From a virus: DNA of 6,385 bases. A program made the position numbers and the translations under genes. The stretch lies in the IMG/VR virus record IMGVR_UViG_3300045988_073383, positions 1 through 6,385 of that record; one strand, 5' to 3'. The notes under the pieces were generated by a model, which worked only from the letters and a program-made list of their open reading frames with translations, was not told the DNA's origin and ran no database searches. This document shows positions 979-6,385 of this stretch, piece after piece; within the stretch, counting starts at the first letter, position 1; every line of letters starts with the position of its first letter.

Positions 979-2553
979 TTAATTACAATTAAATTTATAC
1001 AAATCATTAAATTTCTTCTTAAAATCGGATTCCTGAATCCGAGACATTAATTCATTCTGGGCATGAACCACAAACGGACTACGCTCAACTTGAACAAATA
1101 AATCAGAACGTAAAAAATGGTCCGGATAAATATCATCATACCCTAAACCAAAGCGAGCAAAAACATCATGCGGAAAACGATGAGGAGAGCAAGTCAAAGG
1201 CAGAACCTTATAGACATAAGGATAATAAGACAAAAGCTCAAATCCTGAAGCTCCATTACCTGAAACTAACTCCTGAGAGCGATAAAACGCATTGAGTAAG
1301 TACAACGAATAATCATTGTACATTCGACGCATATTTAAGCAAATATCCCTAACATGATGAAACCGAACATCAGTATAATAGTAATCTACAATACCAAACT
1401 CATTGCGATGCGGATAAGTAAAAGAAGTATTCAATAACCTCTTAACACACTTATACCAAAGATAGTCTTTATACTTGAAACTATATGGAGTAGAAAGATA
1501 CTCAATACCACGCAAAGGACACTCAATATAACGACCAGTAGAACGGTCTATGGCTTTGACGTAATTTCCTGAGTCATATTTTTTATATAACTGTAGTTCA
1601 TAATCAATATTACCTTCGCCATATCCGCAATACTTGCGGAAGTATCGAGATAAAACTTTGTTGGGAAACAAACCATAGGATACTTCGCAGGTTTTCGGGT
1701 CAACTCGAGGGCATTCAAAAGCTGAGTTAACGAAGCAGTCGAATATCTTCTTTTCATCAACTTTGAAAGAGCCCAGAGCTGGGCGTTTACTTGCCAGATG
1801 GAACGTGCGGGTAAGTCCAGTTTTGAGAACTGCTGGAAGACTAGCAAAGCCAGTAACATATTTCGCAACGTACTCAGGAGCGGCACCGCTGACGAGCTGA
1901 ACATCGCATCGCTCAGGACTACACATCGACCAAGACGAATATATAAGCCCTGGCATGATTCGGGCAAGTTCTTCATCATCAACATTGATGATGATGTGAT
2001 AATGTGGACGGAAAGTTGCGGGACCGTACTCTGAAGCGGCAAAGTAACGGATTTTTTGCCTTGAAATATTTTTGTTTTCATTTCTTGAAATTTTAATACG
2101 TAAACGCTTAAAAAACAACTGAATATCACGCTTATAACAGAAGCCAAAGCCTGTCTGATAAGGATTGTGTTCAGGTTCACGATACCATGAATCTTCTAAA
2201 TTGAAATCCAACTCAGGAAGTTCGAGACCATTCTGATCTAAAATAGGCTTATCACCACGAAACGCACGAAAATACACACCATCTTCAGAAGGATAGGCAT
2301 AATACATAGGCATGTGCTTATTGTCATAAGTGAGTGTTACAAAGAAATTCCATTTATGTGCAACGCACTCATCATTGATACGCTGCTGGAGGTCAATAGC
2401 ATAAGCATAACGACAAGCAGGGCAAGTACGACAAGGCACTATTACGTAATCATCTATATATTTATTATAGATGCGATTAGGATTCCAACAAGACATAGAA
2501 GACTTGGCATCACTAGCAGAACGTTGACCATAAACAGAATCTTTGATAAACAT
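979..2553 (-). CDS. VP4: Rolling-circle replication initiation protein (VP4 / gene A-like HUH endonuclease), 524 aa
   Basis: ATG at 2553-2551. The N-terminus is Cys-rich (VPCRTCPACR). RCR motif 1 is FFVTLTY (2326-2346), the HUH motif is HYH in RPHYHIIIN (1996-2004), and the catalytic Tyr motif is YVAKY (1858-1872). I checked all three at nucleotide level. Stop TAA at 981-979. Confidence 0.95.
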   Translation of the reverse strand: MFIKDSVYGQRSASDAKSSMSCWNPNRIYNKYIDDYVIVPCRTCPACRYAYAIDLQQRINDECVAHKWNFFVTLTYDNKHMPMYYAYPSEDGVYFRAFRGDKPILDQNGLELPELDFNLEDSWYREPEHNPYQTGFGFCYKRDIQLFFKRLRIKISRNENKNISRQKIRYFAASEYGPATFRPHYHIIINVDDEELARIMPGLIYSSWSMCSPERCDVQLVSGAAPEYVAKYVTGFASLPAVLKTGLTRTFHLASKRPALGSFKVDEKKIFDCFVNSAFECPRVDPKTCEVSYGLFPNKVLSRYFRKYCGYGEGNIDYELQLYKKYDSGNYVKAIDRSTGRYIECPLRGIEYLSTPYSFKYKDYLWYKCVKRLLNTSFTYPHRNEFGIVDYYYTDVRFHHVRDICLNMRRMYNDYSLYLLNAFYRSQELVSGNGASGFELLSYYPYVYKVLPLTCSPHRFPHDVFARFGLGYDDIYPDHFLRSDLFVQVERSPFVVHAQNELMSRIQESDFKKKFNDLYKFNCN

Positions 2554-3023: not shown

Positions 3024-3047
3024 CAAATATAACGAATTTCAAATATA
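3024..3047 (-). promoter_or_regulatory. Two copies of a Bacteroidetes-type -7 promoter box (TATATTTG = TAnnTTTG) upstream of the gene train
   Basis: On the minus strand TATATTTG occurs at 3047-3040 and at 3031-3024, about 80-100 nt upstream of the first ATG (2942). I could not find a well-spaced -33 TTTG. Confidence 0.45.
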
Positions 3048-3085
3048 AAGAACGTTATGGAAACAGATTTTAAGTTGCTTTCACA

Positions 3086-3103
3086 ATATTTCACGTGAAA
3101 TAT
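3086..3103. promoter_or_regulatory. Perfect 18-bp palindrome ATATTTCAC|GTGAAATAT centred on CACGTG; candidate operator or protein-binding site
   Basis: Bases 3086-3094 are the exact reverse complement of 3095-3103. A direct TTTCAC repeat lies just 5' on the given strand (3079-3084; palindrome copy 3089-3094). It sits about 40-60 nt upstream (coding sense) of the -7 boxes. Confidence 0.5.
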
Positions 3104-3311
3104 AACCTTAGAGATAGCAAAAGCAATAAAAGACTCAATCTTAAGAAGCTTGTGTCAGTAATCGGATATGAGACAAGAGAGGAGCAGCGTTTGACGGAAG
3201 CAAACGCCCTTACGGGATTACTGAAGACTATAAACCAGTTTGGCAGCTTGGAGTGTTTAAGACTCAACGGAAGAAATGCCCGAGCGGGGCGCGTCGACGA
3301 GTTGTCGCTGA

Positions 3312-3331
3312 CGATTTTCTAAGGAAAATCG
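3312..3331. repeat. Perfect 8-bp inverted repeat hairpin CGATTTTC-TAAG-GAAAATCG
   Basis: Read directly from the sequence. Confidence 0.85.
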
Positions 3332-3498
3332 CTTAACCGCGCCACTCGCAGCGCGCCTAATCCGCTCTCCCTAGGGTACTATATATAGCAGGCGATAACA
3401 GGCGATTAGGGGGCCTCTAACGAGGCGGCCCCCTATAACCCCTGCCCCGCTCGGACGCCGAGTGCGATTTTCATGGGGGTGTTACCCCCAAACCCCCA

Positions 3499-3526
3499 CT
3501 TCCTTTTGGCATTGCCCAAAAGGAAG
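3499..3526. repeat. Perfect 11-bp inverted repeat hairpin CTTCCTTTTGG-CATTGC-CCAAAAGGAAG
   Basis: Read directly from the sequence. It is the longest perfect local stem in the window. Confidence 0.9.
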
Positions 3527-3617
3527 CGAAAAGGCTAGTGTTTTTCATAGTATTGGTTGCCTAGCGGCTTGCGTTTATGTTGCTGGGCTATCGTATCTTA
3601 TTCTAAGATACTCGCGC

Positions 3618-3656
3618 ATAAAAAAGGCGCACACACGTGTAACACGCGCGCGCACC
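3618..3656 (-). terminator. Rho-independent terminator for the minus-strand transcription unit
   Basis: The minus-strand RNA reads GGUGCGCGCGCGUG-UUA-CACGUGUGUGCGCC followed by UUUUUU. The stem is 14 bp (3643-3656 with 3626-3639), made of 10 Watson-Crick pairs and 4 G.U pairs. On the given strand those four positions are A.C mismatches, so the structure is strand-specific. It starts 4 nt after the stop of ORF 3660..3854. Confidence 0.65.
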
Positions 3657-3659
3657 TAA

Positions 3660-3854
3660 TTAAAAAGAGTGAGCTTCATAATTAATATAAAGCAAAATAC
3701 TAACCAACAAAAAACATAAAAAGGCTAATAACAGCACTACTAAACAACTTTTAAAATATATATGATCCATATAGCTATAACAACTATGAAACCAACATAT
3801 TGTATTATTTAAATTTAAAAGGGCTAACATGATTAGTATATTCCCCAAAACCAT
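3660..3854 (-). CDS. Possible small membrane peptide (64 aa from ATG 3854; alternative ATGs at 3830 and 3770 give 56 and 36 aa)
   Basis: It contains a strongly hydrophobic segment (CLVVLLLAFLCFLLVSILLYI). It begins in the +1 frame of the VP2 3' end, then stays open for about 48 codons through otherwise non-coding AT-rich sequence and stops right before the terminator. Caveat: +1-frame hydrophobic ORFs are a compositional artefact elsewhere in this genome. Confidence 0.3.
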   Translation of the reverse strand: MVLGNILIMLALLNLNNTICWFHSCYSYMDHIYFKSCLVVLLLAFLCFLLVSILLYINYEAHSF

Positions 3855-4965
3855 AAACAAACTGATTAAACTTACCACTATTAAGCCACCAATCTTCTTT
3901 GAATTTACCGAACTGAGTAGAAGACTCTAGACCTTGAAGACCTAAACGAATTTGTTTCTCAAGATACTTCTTTTCAACATTAAATTTGAAATTATCACGA
4001 TAGGTAGATTGGTTACGATTCCAAATCTGATTTTGTACGTCCATCTGCTGTGTGCCTGCATTCTTCCAACCTGCCTGAGAAGATAACATGTTAGCATGAG
4101 CATTCAACCAACCTTGAGCACAATAATCAGCAGCAAGGGAAGTCTGCTTCTCGGTCCACTTCTGTTGTGCTTTAGTATAAGCAACCTGAGCAATCATCTG
4201 CTGAATAGACATTTGGGCAATATCACGCTGAGCAGGCAAAATAAAATCATTAGTAAACTTCTTCTGGGCAACATCGTAAGCGGTACCAACTTGTTGCAAA
4301 TTGGCAATGGCAACACGGGAATAACTCTCTCTTTCCTGATTTTTAGTAATATTAATAAGACTATTCATGTTAGCATTGAAAAGCTGATTACTCATTTCTT
4401 TAGCTACATTGTCAAACTTAAGACCTTGAACACGTGACATCATAGAAAGAGAATCCTCTGTATTCTTTAACTGCAAAGCCTTGACTTGTTCTTGCTGATA
4501 CTGAGCATTAATATACTGACTAGGAACCTGAGCAATCGAAGCACCTAAAGTCTGATAGCCTTGCGCAAGATGATTATAAGCTTCGGCACCTGATTGTTGA
4601 TTAGCCAGCTCGGCAGAGTTCAACGACTCGGCTTGGCCTGCCTGAATATTACCTAATGCAAAATAAGGATTAATGCCAGCATCTTCATAACGCTGACGCT
4701 GAGCAGCAGGCGTATTATAAGCATTCTGACGATTCCACTGGGCAAGATTCCACTCATTTTGATACTTTGCTAACTCAGCATTAGCCTTATTAGTCTCGCG
4801 AGTAGCTTGCAAAGATTTATCAGCGGCATGTTTAGAACCACCAAAACCAAGCAAACCACCTAATAAATTAGCACCACCAGAAAGGATAGCACCAGCAGTA
4901 AAAGGGTCAAGTTTCTGAGTAAAGGCAAAATTACCTAAACCGAGAGTATTCTGAATATGTAACAT
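3805..4965 (-). CDS. VP2: Minor capsid / DNA pilot protein VP2 (H-like), 386 aa
   Basis: ATG at 4965-4963. It has a Gly-rich hydrophobic N-terminal segment (GAILSGGANLLGGLLGFGG) and the motif NAYNTPAAQRQRYEDAGINPYFAL, which matches the conserved AG(L/I)NP block of microvirus VP2. The rest is a long Q/N/A-rich region likely to form a coiled coil. Stop TAA at 3807-3805. Confidence 0.9.
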   Translation of the reverse strand: MLHIQNTLGLGNFAFTQKLDPFTAGAILSGGANLLGGLLGFGGSKHAADKSLQATRETNKANAELAKYQNEWNLAQWNRQNAYNTPAAQRQRYEDAGINPYFALGNIQAGQAESLNSAELANQQSGAEAYNHLAQGYQTLGASIAQVPSQYINAQYQQEQVKALQLKNTEDSLSMMSRVQGLKFDNVAKEMSNQLFNANMNSLINITKNQERESYSRVAIANLQQVGTAYDVAQKKFTNDFILPAQRDIAQMSIQQMIAQVAYTKAQQKWTEKQTSLAADYCAQGWLNAHANMLSSQAGWKNAGTQQMDVQNQIWNRNQSTYRDNFKFNVEKKYLEKQIRLGLQGLESSTQFGKFKEDWWLNSGKFNQFVYGFGEYTNHVSPFKFK

Positions 4966-5527: not shown

Positions 5528-6385
5528 TTAACTTAAAAGCGGTTCACCCGAAACAGACATAGGACGAATTGCCTTAATACCAATATGAGCATCAACTATA
5601 ATAGGGTCAGTATCAAGACTAGAGCCTGAAAACTGTACAGAACAAATAGAATTAAGAATCTTAGGAGACACTTTAAAACTATATACGTTATATTCCAAAG
5701 AACCATTAGCACCAACGGAGACATCACCATTGAGAACCAAACCTGTATTACGTGGAGCAGTCCAAGCACTAAGACTGCGACCGGTACAGAAAGCTCCATG
5801 TACTTTATCTACACCGGTTTTATACTCCATATAACGATTCTGATATCCAATAACCTTATCAGACCAACTTGCAGAAGAATCAAAATCAACTGGCTTAAGT
5901 AAAGAAAGCTGGAAAGAGTTCAAAGGCTGTTTACCTAAGCGATCAAACTCAGGTTGAAAAAACTGCTCAAAAGACAACTTAGTATTATGAGGGTCAACGC
6001 CAGTTGCATTATAATCAGCTTCAGGAGAGACAGAAAAAATACCCATGATAATACCATGTTCTCGAGAATCGAACACAATACGACCATCATTAACACTACT
6101 AGCTTTGCCATAAATATCACCAGTTAAACCATCGCCAACATTAGATGCAGTATTAGCAGTAGTTATAACCTCGGAGATAGAAATGGGAGCAGAAGAGCCA
6201 CCAAGGTACTGAGCTTTCCAATCATCATGAACATTAGCAGCACCGAAACGATTACGAATCTGTTCACCATAGGAACCATTTCCAGCTTGTTGTTGCAAAC
6301 GTAGAAGCTTATCCAAAGCAAAAGCAGCACGAATATTATGAACAGGAATAGACATACGAGACAAATCCTGCAAATCAGCACTATC
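5528..6385 (-). CDS. VP1: Major capsid protein VP1, C-terminal part. Bases 6331-6385 duplicate 1-55, and the true upstream continuation is 976..1.
   Basis: The frame is open to the window edge, and the M at 6373 in the track is actually an in-frame TTG (Leu). The sequence ...IRAAFALDKLLRLQQQAGNGSYGEQIRNRFG...AQYLGG... resembles the conserved central block of microvirus VP1. Stop TAA at 5530-5528. Confidence 0.93.
   Translation of the reverse strand, partial: DSADLQDLSRMSIPVHNIRAAFALDKLLRLQQQAGNGSYGEQIRNRFGAANVHDDWKAQYLGGSSAPISISEVITTANTASNVGDGLTGDIYGKASSVNDGRIVFDSREHGIIMGIFSVSPEADYNATGVDPHNTKLSFEQFFQPEFDRLGKQPLNSFQLSLLKPVDFDSSASWSDKVIGYQNRYMEYKTGVDKVHGAFCTGRSLSAWTAPRNTGLVLNGDVSVGANGSLEYNVYSFKVSPKILNSICSVQFSGSSLDTDPIIVDAHIGIKAIRPMSVSGEPLLS
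6331..6385. repeat. Terminal redundancy (right copy) marking a circular contig
   Basis: Identical to 1-55. Confidence 0.97.

Follow-up and report, generated by a model that had tools for sequence, protein, structure and literature searches.

The GC-rich island at 3279-3617 in this microvirus genome makes up the right-hand two thirds of a modular, conserved element that spans 3152-3617 of the window (about 470 bases) and whose structure is under selection. We favour the reading, at a probability of about 0.5, that the element is a complementary-strand origin, or single-strand initiation signal. The window is the whole stretch of DNA analysed, 6,385 nt long; its positions 1-55 recur at 6331-6385, and it corresponds to a circle of 6330 nt. 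In its minus (coding) strand T (36.7%) exceeds A (24.6%), as is expected of a packaged microvirus strand; from this T-rich composition, and by Microviridae convention, we take it as the viral strand.

Composition changes abruptly at the island, where the G+C fraction is 0.549 against 0.374 for the remainder of the 6330-nt circle (54.9% and 37.4%, close to the approximately 54% and 35-40% estimated in an earlier sequence-only reading of this DNA). That reading took 3279 and 3617 as limits. The GC-rich part is real, but the left limit of the element has been moved to about 3152, because other microviruses, MG945831 and MT135418, have domain A (3152-3224) at 86-93% identity. The palindromes GTCGAC (3293-3298), CCCTAGGG (3369-3376) and CTATATATAG (3379-3388), the tandem repeat CAGGCGATA (3389-3397) and CAGGCGATT (3399-3407), and a terminator at 3618-3656 had all been reported from the letters alone and are present at those positions. 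The parts of the element and its surroundings are as follows.

3037-3064, no strand assigned: dif-like site TTTCAAATATAA-AGAACG-TTATGGAAAC, assigned by similarity; left border of the region.
3086-3103, no strand assigned: conserved palindrome ATATTTCACGTGAAATAT, between the dif-like site and the element.
3152-3224, minus strand: domain A, with three helices; outside the limits of the sequence-only reading.
3155-3163 / 3216-3224, minus strand: outer helix of domain A.
3187-3193 / 3201-3207, minus strand: inner hairpin of domain A.
3208-3215, minus strand: small hairpin of domain A, CC-TTAC-GG (viral strand CC-GTAA-GG).
3251-3379, minus strand: module B, an optional cassette of several helices, making up the left half of the GC island.
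3282-3287 / 3362-3367, minus strand: helix B1 of module B.
3288-3293 / 3352-3357, minus strand: helix B2 of module B.
3299-3308 / 3339-3347, minus strand: helix B3 of module B.
3312-3319 / 3324-3331, minus strand: hairpin B4 of module B.
3391-3409, minus strand: 10-nt direct repeat GGCGATAAC / GGCGATTAG, the tandem repeat mentioned above, running into hp1.
3405-3442, minus strand: hp1, ATTAGGGGGCC-loop-GGCCCCCTATAACCCC; flanks conserved, stem and loop variable.
3450-3462, minus strand: hp2, CTCGG-ACG-CCGAG; conflicts with an 11-bp long-range helix (below).
3472-3497, minus strand: hp3, CATGGGGG-TGTTA-CCCCC followed by AAACCCCC.
3499-3526, minus strand: hp4, CTTCCTTTTGG-CATTGC-CCAAAAGGAAG; loop and inner stem invariant, outer stem covarying.
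3527-3558, minus strand: unpaired segment containing AAAGGCTAGTGTTTTTCATAG (viral strand CTATGAAAAACACTAGCCTTT), invariant in alignment A1; candidate recognition or priming stretch.
3559-3568, minus strand: hp5 mini-hairpin, GCC-TAGC-GGC (viral strand GCC-GCTA-GGC, a C-GNNA-G loop).
3593-3611, minus strand: hp6, the 3' hairpin, GTATCTTA-TTC-TAAGATAC, whose viral-strand triloop is GAA; TCGCGC follows at 3612-3617.
3625-3657, minus strand: intrinsic terminator at the right border of the element, with a 15-bp stem and then TTTTTT.

The element family comprises 118 copies with 99 distinct 335-nt cores. Its members are 255-596 nt long and are carried by five GenBank microviruses from pig faeces, by IMG/VR contigs and by 85 gut metagenome loci, the last retrieved with the unpaired segment 3527-3558 as search anchor. 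In about 100 distinct microvirus assemblies from pig and human gut the element occupies the same place in the same orientation: it follows the pilot gene directly, runs antisense to the genes and is bounded by the pilot-gene terminator and the dif-like integration site. A blastn search of a phage collection matched uncultured gut microviruses only; the search for homologous islands that the sequence-only reading had proposed thus recovered them, in gut microviruses from several studies. TTTCACGTGAAA is found in most microvirus copies and serves as a landmark in 80 distinct elements. The 14-mer TAGTGTTTTTCATA was discarded as a search pattern; it is too short and matches at least 120 unrelated viral contigs.

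The core also occurs, in one or two tandem copies, in an unrelated group of 10-12 kb rolling-circle phages, whose Rep is similar to the Rep_trans-type initiator found in the Cellulophaga phages that are filed under Microviridae. There the element, including its invariant unpaired segment (L250 group), is co-oriented with all genes, opposite to the microvirus arrangement, and lies directly upstream of an operon encoding a small Xer-like tyrosine recombinase. The presence of the core in this second group is in line with a host factor, and not a phage protein, as the partner that recognises it. Phages clearly exchange modules with one another. The host, presumably Bacteroidales and not enterobacteria, is only inferred, because the core pattern has no copy in 185,579 species-representative cellular genomes; a search of cellular genomes with the capsid protein likewise returned no relatives.

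Selection on structure is evident from both folding and covariation. As the sequence-only reading had suggested checking, the region folds better than dinucleotide shuffles on both strands, with z-scores of -6.0 (plus) and -6.6 (minus) for 3279-3617 with RNA parameters, and of -4.3 (plus) and -6.2 (minus) for 3150-3617 with DNA parameters. Covariation, another of its proposed checks, is also present: helices are maintained by compensatory changes among homologues, and indels are placed in loops. Across ten window-like sequences, 17 pairs are changed on both sides against 8.3 +/- 1.8 in shuffles (none of 500 reaches 17), and 86.8% of cells are paired against at most 55% when the partners are slid. 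The helices were mapped by hand; MAFFT with RNAalifold aligned the 3' core poorly and recovered little structure.

Domain A and hp6 retain their helices despite unrelated sequences. Thirty distinct variants of domain A fall into three sequence types, in which double changes keep all three helices (for example CAGTAATC/GATTACTG and CGGTTTTC/GAAAACCG), and its small hairpin alternates between CCC-TTAC-GGG, CGC-TTTC-GCG and CTC-TTAC-GAG. Module B is present in 12 of the copies examined (11 distinct) and missing from close relatives with the same flanks, such as L170 and L251; six pairs in B2 and B3 are changed on both sides, and relatives have B4 swapped for another hairpin. At the position of the direct repeat, relatives carry two to three copies of GATAAC-N4 (for example GATAACTAATGATAACTAATGATAACTGGCG in L012 and L140). 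The hp1 pattern ATTAGGGG-N-CCCCTATAACCC recurs in many microvirus contigs with differing stems and loops, and its stem has pairs changed on both sides in alignment A1 (helix 5). The outer pair of hp2 shows a compensatory change in relatives (GTCGG-(A)ACG-CCGAC), while hp3 is common to L140, L156 and L175 and to the non-microvirus phages L250 and L182. Five pairs in the outer stem of hp4 are changed on both sides (helix 8), and its TTTTGGCATTGCCCAAAAG is exact in 14 IMG/VR contigs. For hp5, C-TNNC-G (C-GNNA-G on the viral strand) is found in 90 of the 99 distinct copies, with a second pair that covaries between CC/GG (68) and GC/GC (22). The hp6 position is occupied in relatives by unrelated, perfectly paired stems: GTTTCC, GCATCC, GTATTCGG, GGCAC-TAC-GTGCC and GGTTC-TTC-GAACC. 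An 11-bp long-range helix noted earlier does have both arms in the window (3280-3290 and 3444-3454), but it is window-specific and was rejected as not conserved. It competes with GAGCGG/CCGCTC, GGCGCG/CGCGCC and the CTCGG-ACG-CCGAG hairpin, all backed by compensatory change in relatives. A 9-nt complementarity between 3324-3332 and 3464-3472, also not conserved, was likewise rejected.

No reading frame is conserved among the 99 copies, in keeping with the earlier judgement that the gap holds no convincing ORF: even the best frame runs through the core without a stop in 19 copies at most, and for three of the six there is no such copy. The GenBank record MG945191 has a 'hypothetical protein' annotated over the element.

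Wobble-poor stems, viral-strand GNA loops and the C-GNNA-G hairpin indirectly suggest that the element folds as packaged-strand DNA, not RNA. Among 862 pairs in 104 GC-rich hairpins, four are G.T and ten A.C, and 95% are Watson-Crick; the adjacent terminator hairpins, judged by the same criteria, contain 25 minus-strand G.U in 187 pairs, giving wobble shares of about 1% and 13%, respectively. The terminator in the window is itself rich in G.U pairs, which correspond to A.C on the plus strand. These stricter counts, with the terminators as control, replaced a loose alignment-free wobble count that was noisy and confounded by the A/C-rich plus strand. GNA triloops are found in 39 of 83 distinct triloop hairpins on the viral strand and in one of 83 on the other, where 7% would be expected, and triloops outnumber tetraloops by 48 to 13; all these loop and stem statistics are family-level figures from related sequences that are not independent. 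Thirty of the 39 GNA loops are C-GNA-G, many of them literally GCGAAGC, and the GNA loops fall into at least ten positional classes within which N varies. Such d(GNA) loops require a C-G closing pair (PMC3201870). Mini-hairpins of the types GCGNAGC and GCGNNAGC are found at the complementary-strand priming sites of G4, St-1 and alpha3 and at RSF1010 ssiA, bind SSB poorly and are far less stable as RNA (PMC13037366). The third loop base of hp5 on the viral strand is usually a pyrimidine, so this is not an RNA GNRA loop. The window itself has three mini-hairpin-type loops only: hp5 (GCC-GCTA-GGC), hp6 (A-GAA-T) and the domain A hairpin (CC-GTAA-GG). Folding energy gives the viral strand no advantage across the 99 cores: the plus strand is slightly more stable, the difference being 0.9 kcal/mol under DNA and 2.3 kcal/mol under RNA parameters.

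Among the explanations offered in the sequence-only reading, an origin or primase entry structure on the packaged single strand is favoured because of the strand-asymmetric GNA/GNNA mini-hairpins, the few wobbles, the position in the gap between terminator and promoter, and the presence of the core in a further group of rolling-circle phages. What we infer is the folding as DNA, the binding of a host factor and the start of priming at the element. On injection of the single-stranded circle, the stack of GC-rich hairpins, several of them capped by DNA mini-hairpin loops (GNA or GNNA with C-G closure), would stay folded and largely free of host SSB. A host priming enzyme, for which a primase, a PriA-type primosome or RNA polymerase are candidates, would then recognise the folded stack together with the invariant stretch CTATGAAAAACACTAGCCTTT of the viral strand and the invariant hp4 loop, and would lay the RNA primer for the complementary strand. 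The site has the properties of such an origin in being non-coding on the packaged strand, with the minus-strand terminator and -7 boxes on its flanks, in having stable hairpins under selection (z of -6.2 on the viral strand, 17 double-change pairs) and, at family level, in bearing mini-hairpins of the GCGNAGC and GCGNNAGC kind on the template strand. No other substantial structured non-coding region was seen in the window. Priming alone leaves the size of the element, its optional modules and its 10-nt repeats unexplained. The model also requires the 10-12 kb group to expose the strand antisense to its genes, of which base skew gives a weak hint.

The primase-dependent origins of G4, St-1, phiK and alpha3 are likewise non-coding stretches of the packaged strand with an SSB-free hairpin cluster and, as in the model proposed here, use host enzymes only. 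Both the motif GCGAAAGC, which is the viral strand of some domain A variants, and GTTA loops, known from G4 and St-1/alpha3, occur in the element family. The G4 site consists of three hairpins in roughly 140 nt, whereas 6-12 helices occupy the 255-596 nt of the element, which also has exchangeable modules and an unpaired stretch of 22 nt that is invariant; its host is presumably Bacteroidales, it is common to a non-microvirus phage group, and it is likened to the G4 type by motif and layout. The n' (PriA) site of phiX174 is also an intergenic viral-strand hairpin region, a single one of about 55 nt, and the element is several times larger than either the G4 or the phiX174 site. At the n' site a host replication-restart protein recognises the hairpin to start the complementary strand (PMC9865509). 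The reekeekee- and roodoodoo-microviruses have smaller conserved intergenic hairpins with compensatory substitutions, proposed as complementary-strand starts (PMC9865509); these are one or two hairpins of 13-64 nt, whereas the element is multi-domain, ten times larger and accompanied by loop-type evidence for the strand.

In its modular mosaicism, tandem copies and sharing between two Rep families, the element resembles the single-strand origins of rolling-circle plasmids. These are swapped as cassettes between unrelated replicons, and some plasmids carry two; ssoA, ssoU, ssoT and ssoW, along with the M13/f1 minus-strand origin, are 150-300 nt long, highly structured, orientation-dependent and host-specific. 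The defining motifs of ssoA are RSB and CS-6 (TAGCGT/A), the latter in the terminal loop of the displaced strand. A match to CS-6 was rejected: TAGCG is found only in plus-strand hp5, as one of eight loop variants, and the viral strand reads GCTAG. The hairpins of the window also differ from ssoA in forming no promoter-like -33 / -7 pair. A plasmid search gave a single match, a 6313-bp 'Pseudomonas plasmid' that is itself a microvirus and is uninformative on plasmid single-strand origins.

It is possible but unlikely that the element is instead a large structured non-coding RNA, made from either strand and binding a conserved host factor, in a new class like the large ornate phage RNAs. Its length of 255-596 nt, its GC-rich island in an AT-rich genome and its peripheral modules around an invariant core are large-RNA-like; strong covariation, a fold z of about -6 with RNA parameters, the slightly better folding of the plus strand and the co-orientation with all genes in the 10-12 kb phages also agree with an RNA, as do the plus-strand genes with Bacteroides-type promoters that adjoin the element in L006, L008 and L009. 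ROOL, GOLLD and HEARO/omega RNAs share its size range, its setting as a GC-rich island in phage DNA and its variable peripheral domains. The element differs from them in its wobble-poor stems and DNA-type loops, and has no covariance-model match, no promoter box in the window and no associated IscB or TnpB gene. The Rfam scan proposed in the sequence-only reading found no match at E<=1 for window 3050-3617, including to ROOL, GOLLD, HEARO, OLE and raiA, and none at E<=0.1 for six relatives spanning all module types; a search for tRNA and tmRNA genes found none.

The transcription context also speaks against an independently transcribed RNA. The sole terminator (3625-3657), on the minus strand, ends the transcript of the pilot gene and a small ORF and precedes the element in that direction. 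The 'promoter-like boxes' reported at 3024-3047 are indeed two Bacteroides-type -7 boxes (TATATTTG), but they lie on the minus strand and point away from the island, and the second overlaps the dif-like site. Assuming a Bacteroides-like host promoter, no TAnnTTTG box is present on either strand between 3048 and 3980, in or flanking the element. There is no plus-strand terminator for it either; the plus-strand hairpin at 3448-3464, which is hp2 followed by CGATTTTC, was not treated as one. In the window the element thus has neither a -7 promoter box of its own nor a same-strand terminator, and RNA is further opposed by the wobble share of about 1% against 13% in neighbouring RNA terminator hairpins, the excess of triloops over tetraloops, the one-strand GNA/GNNA bias with C-G closure and the pyrimidine where GNRA needs a purine. 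GC-rich RNA hairpins can also be wobble-poor, and read-through of the terminator could place the element in a minus-strand RNA. We think it improbable that gut ssDNA phages have here a modular structured RNA class of 0.25-0.6 kb whose core captures a conserved Bacteroidales host factor. Such an RNA might arise from read-through of the terminator or from a promoter that escaped recognition, and the DNA-like statistics of loops and stems would be a side effect of a second demand on this sequence, to fold in the virion as well.

A role for folded single-stranded DNA other than priming, such as condensation or packaging, exclusion of SSB or nucleases, a single-stranded promoter or a host-defence decoy, seems distinctly improbable. 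The DNA-type signatures of stems and loops apply to it equally, and the size and optional modules of the element exceed the usual needs of a priming site. In roughly a third of relatives the Bacteroides -7 box TAATTTTG stands on both arms of a long imperfect hairpin, but this promoter-like hairpin is missing from the window, and a folded promoter was rejected on that ground. Against such roles, too, every ssDNA phage needs a complementary-strand start, for which no second substantial structured candidate was seen in the window. Packaging in phiX174 is coupled to replication and needs no packaging hairpin, which counts against a packaging role.

A function in integration or excision, whether as an accessory sequence for Xer at the dif-like site or as a folded attachment site like that of CTXphi, is a very unlikely account of the element. 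The dif-like site at 3037-3064 is, from its sequence, a probable Xer integration site, and the element adjoins it. In long contigs, direct repeats of the homologous dif-like core TAACCGGTATTATGGTAA bound the prophage copies; they are spaced 6.4-6.5 kb from each other, about 520 nt upstream of the anchor. This agrees with the view that Bacteroidetes microvirus prophages use host Xer recombinases at dif-like sites (PMC3091885). The operon for a small Xer-like tyrosine recombinase just past the element in the 10-12 kb phages also favours integration. As in CTXphi and the dif-like sites of Bacteroidetes microviruses, an integrase-less ssDNA phage has a dif-like site, here beside the element. The folded-ssDNA recombination site suggested in the sequence-only reading therefore holds in so far as a recombination site exists, but the crossover core is not within the island; it lies about 90 nt to the left of domain A. 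The window has no inverted repeat involving 3037-3064, so a CTXphi-type forked hairpin, in which two inverted dif-like sites pair, is not formed. Xer synapsis has no obvious use for covarying hairpins or mini-hairpin loops, and the accessory sequences cer and psi are protein-bound duplex DNA, not covarying intrastrand hairpins. Finally, an assembly artefact, a recent foreign insert or a missed protein-coding gene is scarcely credible: the abrupt composition change, the restriction of module B to 12 copies and the MG945191 annotation could be so read, but there is no conserved frame, helix changes are compensatory with indels in loops, and foreign insertion or misassembly is refuted for the whole element because about 100 independent assemblies from different studies carry it with the same neighbours, leaving of the earlier suggestion of an insert only that module B (3251-3379) is optional and that modules are exchanged.

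Microviruses rank among the most common gut phages of humans and animals. If this reading of the element is right, the complementary-strand origin would be pinned to a defined cassette with an invariant core, and such origins could be large, modular and swapped between unrelated rolling-circle phages, like plasmid single-strand origins. ORFs annotated across the region would then probably be spurious, a caution to annotators. Strand-asymmetric GNA/GNNA loops with wobble-free stems would provide a signature that separates folded-DNA from RNA elements in metagenomes, and the same signature would call the packaged strand of uncultured ssDNA phages. The cassette would also be a handle for in vitro priming assays and for replicons and vectors for gut Bacteroidales.

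The window covers an entire microvirus genome, circular and 6330 nt long, with bases 1-55 recurring at 6331-6385, and all of its large genes lie on the minus strand. This coding strand is T-rich (36.7% T vs 24.6% A) and, following Microviridae convention, we take it to be the packaged strand; it is called the viral strand below, and its complement the plus strand.

Features of the window
979-2553, minus strand: putative replication initiator (524 aa), assigned by position and similarity to annotated relatives
3031-3024 and 3047-3040, minus strand: two Bacteroides-type -7 boxes, TATATTTG
3037-3064: probable dif-like site, TTTCAAATATAA-AGAACG-TTATGGAAAC, assigned by similarity
3086-3103: perfect 18-nt palindrome ATATTTCACGTGAAATAT
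3152-3617: hairpin-rich element (466 nt, 7.4% of the genome), comprising domain A (3152-3224), module B (3251-3379) and the core (3405-3617)
3625-3657, minus strand: intrinsic terminator hairpin
3660-3770, minus strand: strongly hydrophobic 36-aa ORF (MDHIYFKSCLVVLLLAFLCFLLVSILLYINYEAHSF), between pilot gene and terminator
3805-4965, minus strand: pilot-like gene, assigned by position and similarity to annotated relatives
Across the window ends, minus strand: capsid gene

The product of the 36-aa ORF may be a small membrane or lysis peptide, and by eye a comparable small hydrophobic ORF apparently occupies the matching place in relatives. In some relatives (L006, L008, L009) one or two small opposite-strand genes with good Bacteroides promoters (TTTG ... 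TAccTTTG) follow the element on its right, which makes this part of their genomes ambisense; the protein from one such gene starts MYKVVYYQK and is ~85 aa long.

The sequence-only reading had singled out a GC-rich, hairpin-dense island at 3279-3617, and its description largely stands. The island has 54.9% G+C against 37.4% in the remaining genome, and its palindromes and 10-nt repeat had been located correctly. Compared with dinucleotide shuffles, the island folds at z = -6.0 (plus) and -6.6 (minus) with RNA parameters, and 3150-3617 at z = -4.3 (plus) and -6.2 (minus) with DNA parameters. The terminator had been recognised as such, and the suspected promoter boxes are real, though on the minus strand and firing away from the island.

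A blastn search of GenBank phages found five pig-faeces microviruses with blocks in common with this region, among them 3151-3221, which lies beyond the island as originally drawn. Pattern scans located the element in IMG/VR contigs and 85 gut metagenome loci, giving a family of 118 copies with 99 distinct 335-nt cores. In every microvirus checked, it lies directly downstream of the pilot gene and antisense to it.

Order of parts in the family, plus strand
1, dif-like site
2, palindrome TTTCACGTGAAA
3, variable 5' domain(s)
4, GATAAC-N4 repeat, 2-3 copies
5, hairpin hp1 (ATTAGGGG-loop-CCCCTATAACCCC)
6, one to three variable hairpins
7, hairpin hp4 (TTTGG-CATTGC-CCAAA), invariant
8, invariant unpaired stretch AAAGGCTAGTGTTTTTCATAG
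9, mini-hairpin hp5
10, 3' hairpin
11, terminator

From palindrome to 3' end, the element spans 255-596 nt across the family. Module B, the left half of the island, is present in 12 copies (11 distinct), missing from close relatives that share its flanks and partially deleted in one contig (L193); it is an optional cassette. The core of the family is formed by the right half (3405-3617). The palindrome's own core, TTTCACGTGAAA, sits between dif-like site and element and is kept in most microvirus copies; candidate roles for the palindrome are operator, Rep site and Xer accessory site. A subgroup (L011, L012, L013, L153 and L234) has two or three CCTATTAGTGTATGCTTG direct repeats on both sides of the core, replaced by TTCGTGGACTGCTGC repeats in L008; both look like iterons.

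The hp1 motif (GCG-ATTAGGGG-loop-CCCCTATAACCCC) is found again, commonly in several copies, in phage contigs of 75-360 kb, placed within long repeated hairpin-rich intergenic units (L147 at 825-850 and 4345-4370; L158 at 2670-2696 and 6349-6375; L160; L169; L145; L165). A PLSDB entry named 'Pseudomonas aeruginosa plasmid unnamed2' (NZ_CP050055.1, 1-6313, 6313 bp) matches part of the core at 86% identity and has a gene for a microvirus major capsid protein. Probably this is a microvirus of the gut type, either wrongly listed among plasmids or present as a contaminant. Since a scan of species-representative genomes found no copy of the element, we infer a Bacteroidales host from promoter type, habitat and earlier work (PMC3091885). 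Full-text literature searches found nothing on the family and Rfam has no entry for it, so it appears to be undescribed; complementary-strand origins themselves are a known kind of element.

The structure of the element is under selection. When the window helices were mapped onto an alignment of ten window-like sequences, 17 of 52 pairs had changed on both sides, against 8.3 +/- 1.8 in shuffles, none of 500 reaching 17; 86.8% of cells were paired, against at most 55% with the 3' partners slid. Domain A exists as three sequence types, each retaining all three helices, with one helix swapped between CAGTAATC/GATTACTG and CGGTTTTC/GAAAACCG and the small hairpin varying among CCC-TTAC-GGG, CGC-TTTC-GCG and CTC-TTAC-GAG. 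The stems of the 3' hairpin are unrelated between lineages. For the 11-bp long-range helix proposed from sequence, the complementary 11-nt arms are present in the window without being conserved. The pairings that relatives back in its place are GAGCGG/CCGCTC, GGCGCG/CGCGCC, which reads GACGGG/CCCGTC in those relatives, and a local hairpin, CTCGG-ACG-CCGAG.

Whether this structure is formed by RNA or DNA can be judged from signals, stems and loops. Rfam gave no match in the window's element at E<=1, nor, at E<=0.1, in any of six relatives. No Bacteroides-type -7 box (TAnnTTTG, the presumed host promoter type) was found on either strand between 3048 and 3980, nor any plus-strand terminator for the element, and the T-tract of the minus-strand terminator abuts the element, leaving no space for a minus-strand promoter. 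The element's stems (104 distinct GC-rich hairpins, 862 pairs) contain 4 G.T and 10 A.C pairs in the plus reading, whereas the adjacent terminator hairpins, used as an internal RNA control under identical criteria, have 25 minus-strand G.U in 187 pairs (13%). Terminator stems, in the window and at equivalent places in relatives, are (CG)n-like and G.U-rich on the minus strand, so the complementary strand is unable to form the matching hairpin, a markedly one-sided arrangement.

Triloops outnumber tetraloops (48 vs 13) among the element's perfect hairpins. On the viral strand, 39 of 83 distinct triloop hairpins have a GNA loop, 30 of them closed by C-G and many literally containing GCGAAGC; on the other strand only one of the 83 does, against 7% predicted from composition. 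By position, the GNA loops form at least ten classes; inside a class G and A are fixed and the base between them differs (GAA, GTA, GCA). Next to the invariant stretch lies hp5, whose viral-strand sequence is C-GNNA-G in 90 of the 99 copies (GCTA 30, GTTA 22, GTCA 11, GCAA 8, GCCA 8, GATA 7, GTAA 3, GGCA 1). Its second pair covaries. In 78 of the 90 the third loop position holds a pyrimidine, a base that would not be tolerated there in a GNRA loop of RNA. Some variants of domain A carry GCGAAAGC on the viral strand. Mini-hairpins of the GCGNAGC and GCGNNAGC types have exceptional stability in DNA form but far less in RNA form, bind SSB poorly, and are present where complementary-strand synthesis is primed in G4 (GCGAAAGC) and in St-1 and alpha3 (GCGTTAGC), as well as in RSF1010 ssiA (Hirao's review, PMC13037366); d(GNA) loops depend on a C-G closing pair (PMC3201870). 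Nearest-neighbour energies, by contrast, give the viral strand no advantage: across the 99 cores the plus strand folds better, with a lead of 0.9 kcal/mol under DNA parameters and of 2.3 kcal/mol under RNA parameters. Together, the absence of Rfam matches and -7 boxes, the wobble-poor stems and the DNA-type loops favour folded DNA on the viral strand. The element probably works as DNA rather than RNA, and a new large structured RNA class is unlikely.

A folded recombination site had also been suggested, by analogy with CTXphi. Long gut metagenome contigs do contain the microvirus as a prophage between direct repeats, the 18-nt TAACCGGTATTATGGTAA recurring 6.4-6.5 kb apart in three (L221, 38/6583; L237, 3008/9495; L172, 3817/10195) and in shorter versions in four more (L238, L193, L185, L176). 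The repeats lie ~520 nt upstream of the invariant stretch that served as search anchor, immediately left of the palindrome, and agree with the dif-like attachment sites, and the use of host Xer, that have been proposed for Bacteroidetes microvirus prophages (PMC3091885). The window's dif-like site overlaps one of the two early -7 boxes. No inverted partner of 3037-3064 was found in the window, so a CTXphi-type folded attachment site is unsupported; the integration site adjoins the element and lies outside it. A missed gene can be dismissed: the element is not coding, as even the best frame runs uninterrupted through the core in just 19 of the 99 copies. A GenBank misc_feature 'similar to hypothetical protein' drawn over the element in MG945191.1 (5415-5693) is probably spurious, because no frame is conserved across the family.

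Five core carriers are not microviruses: L175, L196, L199 and L250 (10-12 kb) and L182 (a 4.9-kb contig). Searches with the replication and pilot proteins of the window and with two smaller ones, covering four of these five contigs, found no match. Their ORFs of at least 100 aa lie almost all on one strand, those of L250 (1-12531) including a small Xer-like tyrosine recombinase, an M15 endolysin, an SSB and a 496-aa replication initiation protein. The last is weakly similar (E = 6e-6) to the initiator, annotated Pfam PF02486, of Cellulophaga phages phi12:2, phi12a:1, phi18:4 and phi48:1, which GenBank files under Microviridae. With MT836516.1, these contigs form a group of ~10-12 kb gut phages with Rep_trans-like initiator, Xer-like integrase, SSB and M15 endolysin that is apparently undescribed. 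Here the core occurs in one or two tandem copies and runs in the direction of the genes, embedded in >1 kb of repeated non-coding sequence that is rich in GC and dense in hairpins. The part common to both groups comprises hp3, hp4, the invariant stretch, hp5 and the 3' hairpin; such sharing between phages with different initiators argues that the element's partner is a host factor rather than a phage protein.

We propose, with a probability of about 0.5, that the element is folded single-stranded DNA on the packaged strand serving as a complementary-strand origin, one of the roles offered by the sequence-only reading. SSB-resistant hairpins would display the invariant loop and invariant unpaired stretch to a host priming enzyme. 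Such an origin explains why the element occupies the sole large gap in transcription, keeps a strict orientation in microviruses, has loops of the DNA type on stems free of wobble pairs, is shared with another rolling-circle phage, and shows a cassette-like mosaicism as known from plasmid single-strand origins. Given the opposite orientation in the 10-12 kb group, the model predicts that the exposed strand there is antisense to the genes; the T-rich strand of that group is the non-coding one, which lends weak support. In scale and architecture the element differs from G4, phiX174, M13 and ssoA-type sites: its size, optional modules and 10-nt repeats exceed known priming sites and do not fit the model well.

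Folded promoters are found in the M13 minus-strand origin and in F-plasmid Frpo. In about one third of relatives (e.g. L135, L136, L166), the Bacteroides -7 consensus TAATTTTG stands on both arms of a long, AT-rich, imperfect hairpin located ~260-300 nt upstream of the anchor. By analogy, this hairpin may be a folded single-stranded promoter of this kind; the window is without it. Much smaller hairpins in other microvirus clades have been inferred to be complementary-strand origins (PMC9865509), and the origin proposed here would carry that inference over to gut microviruses.
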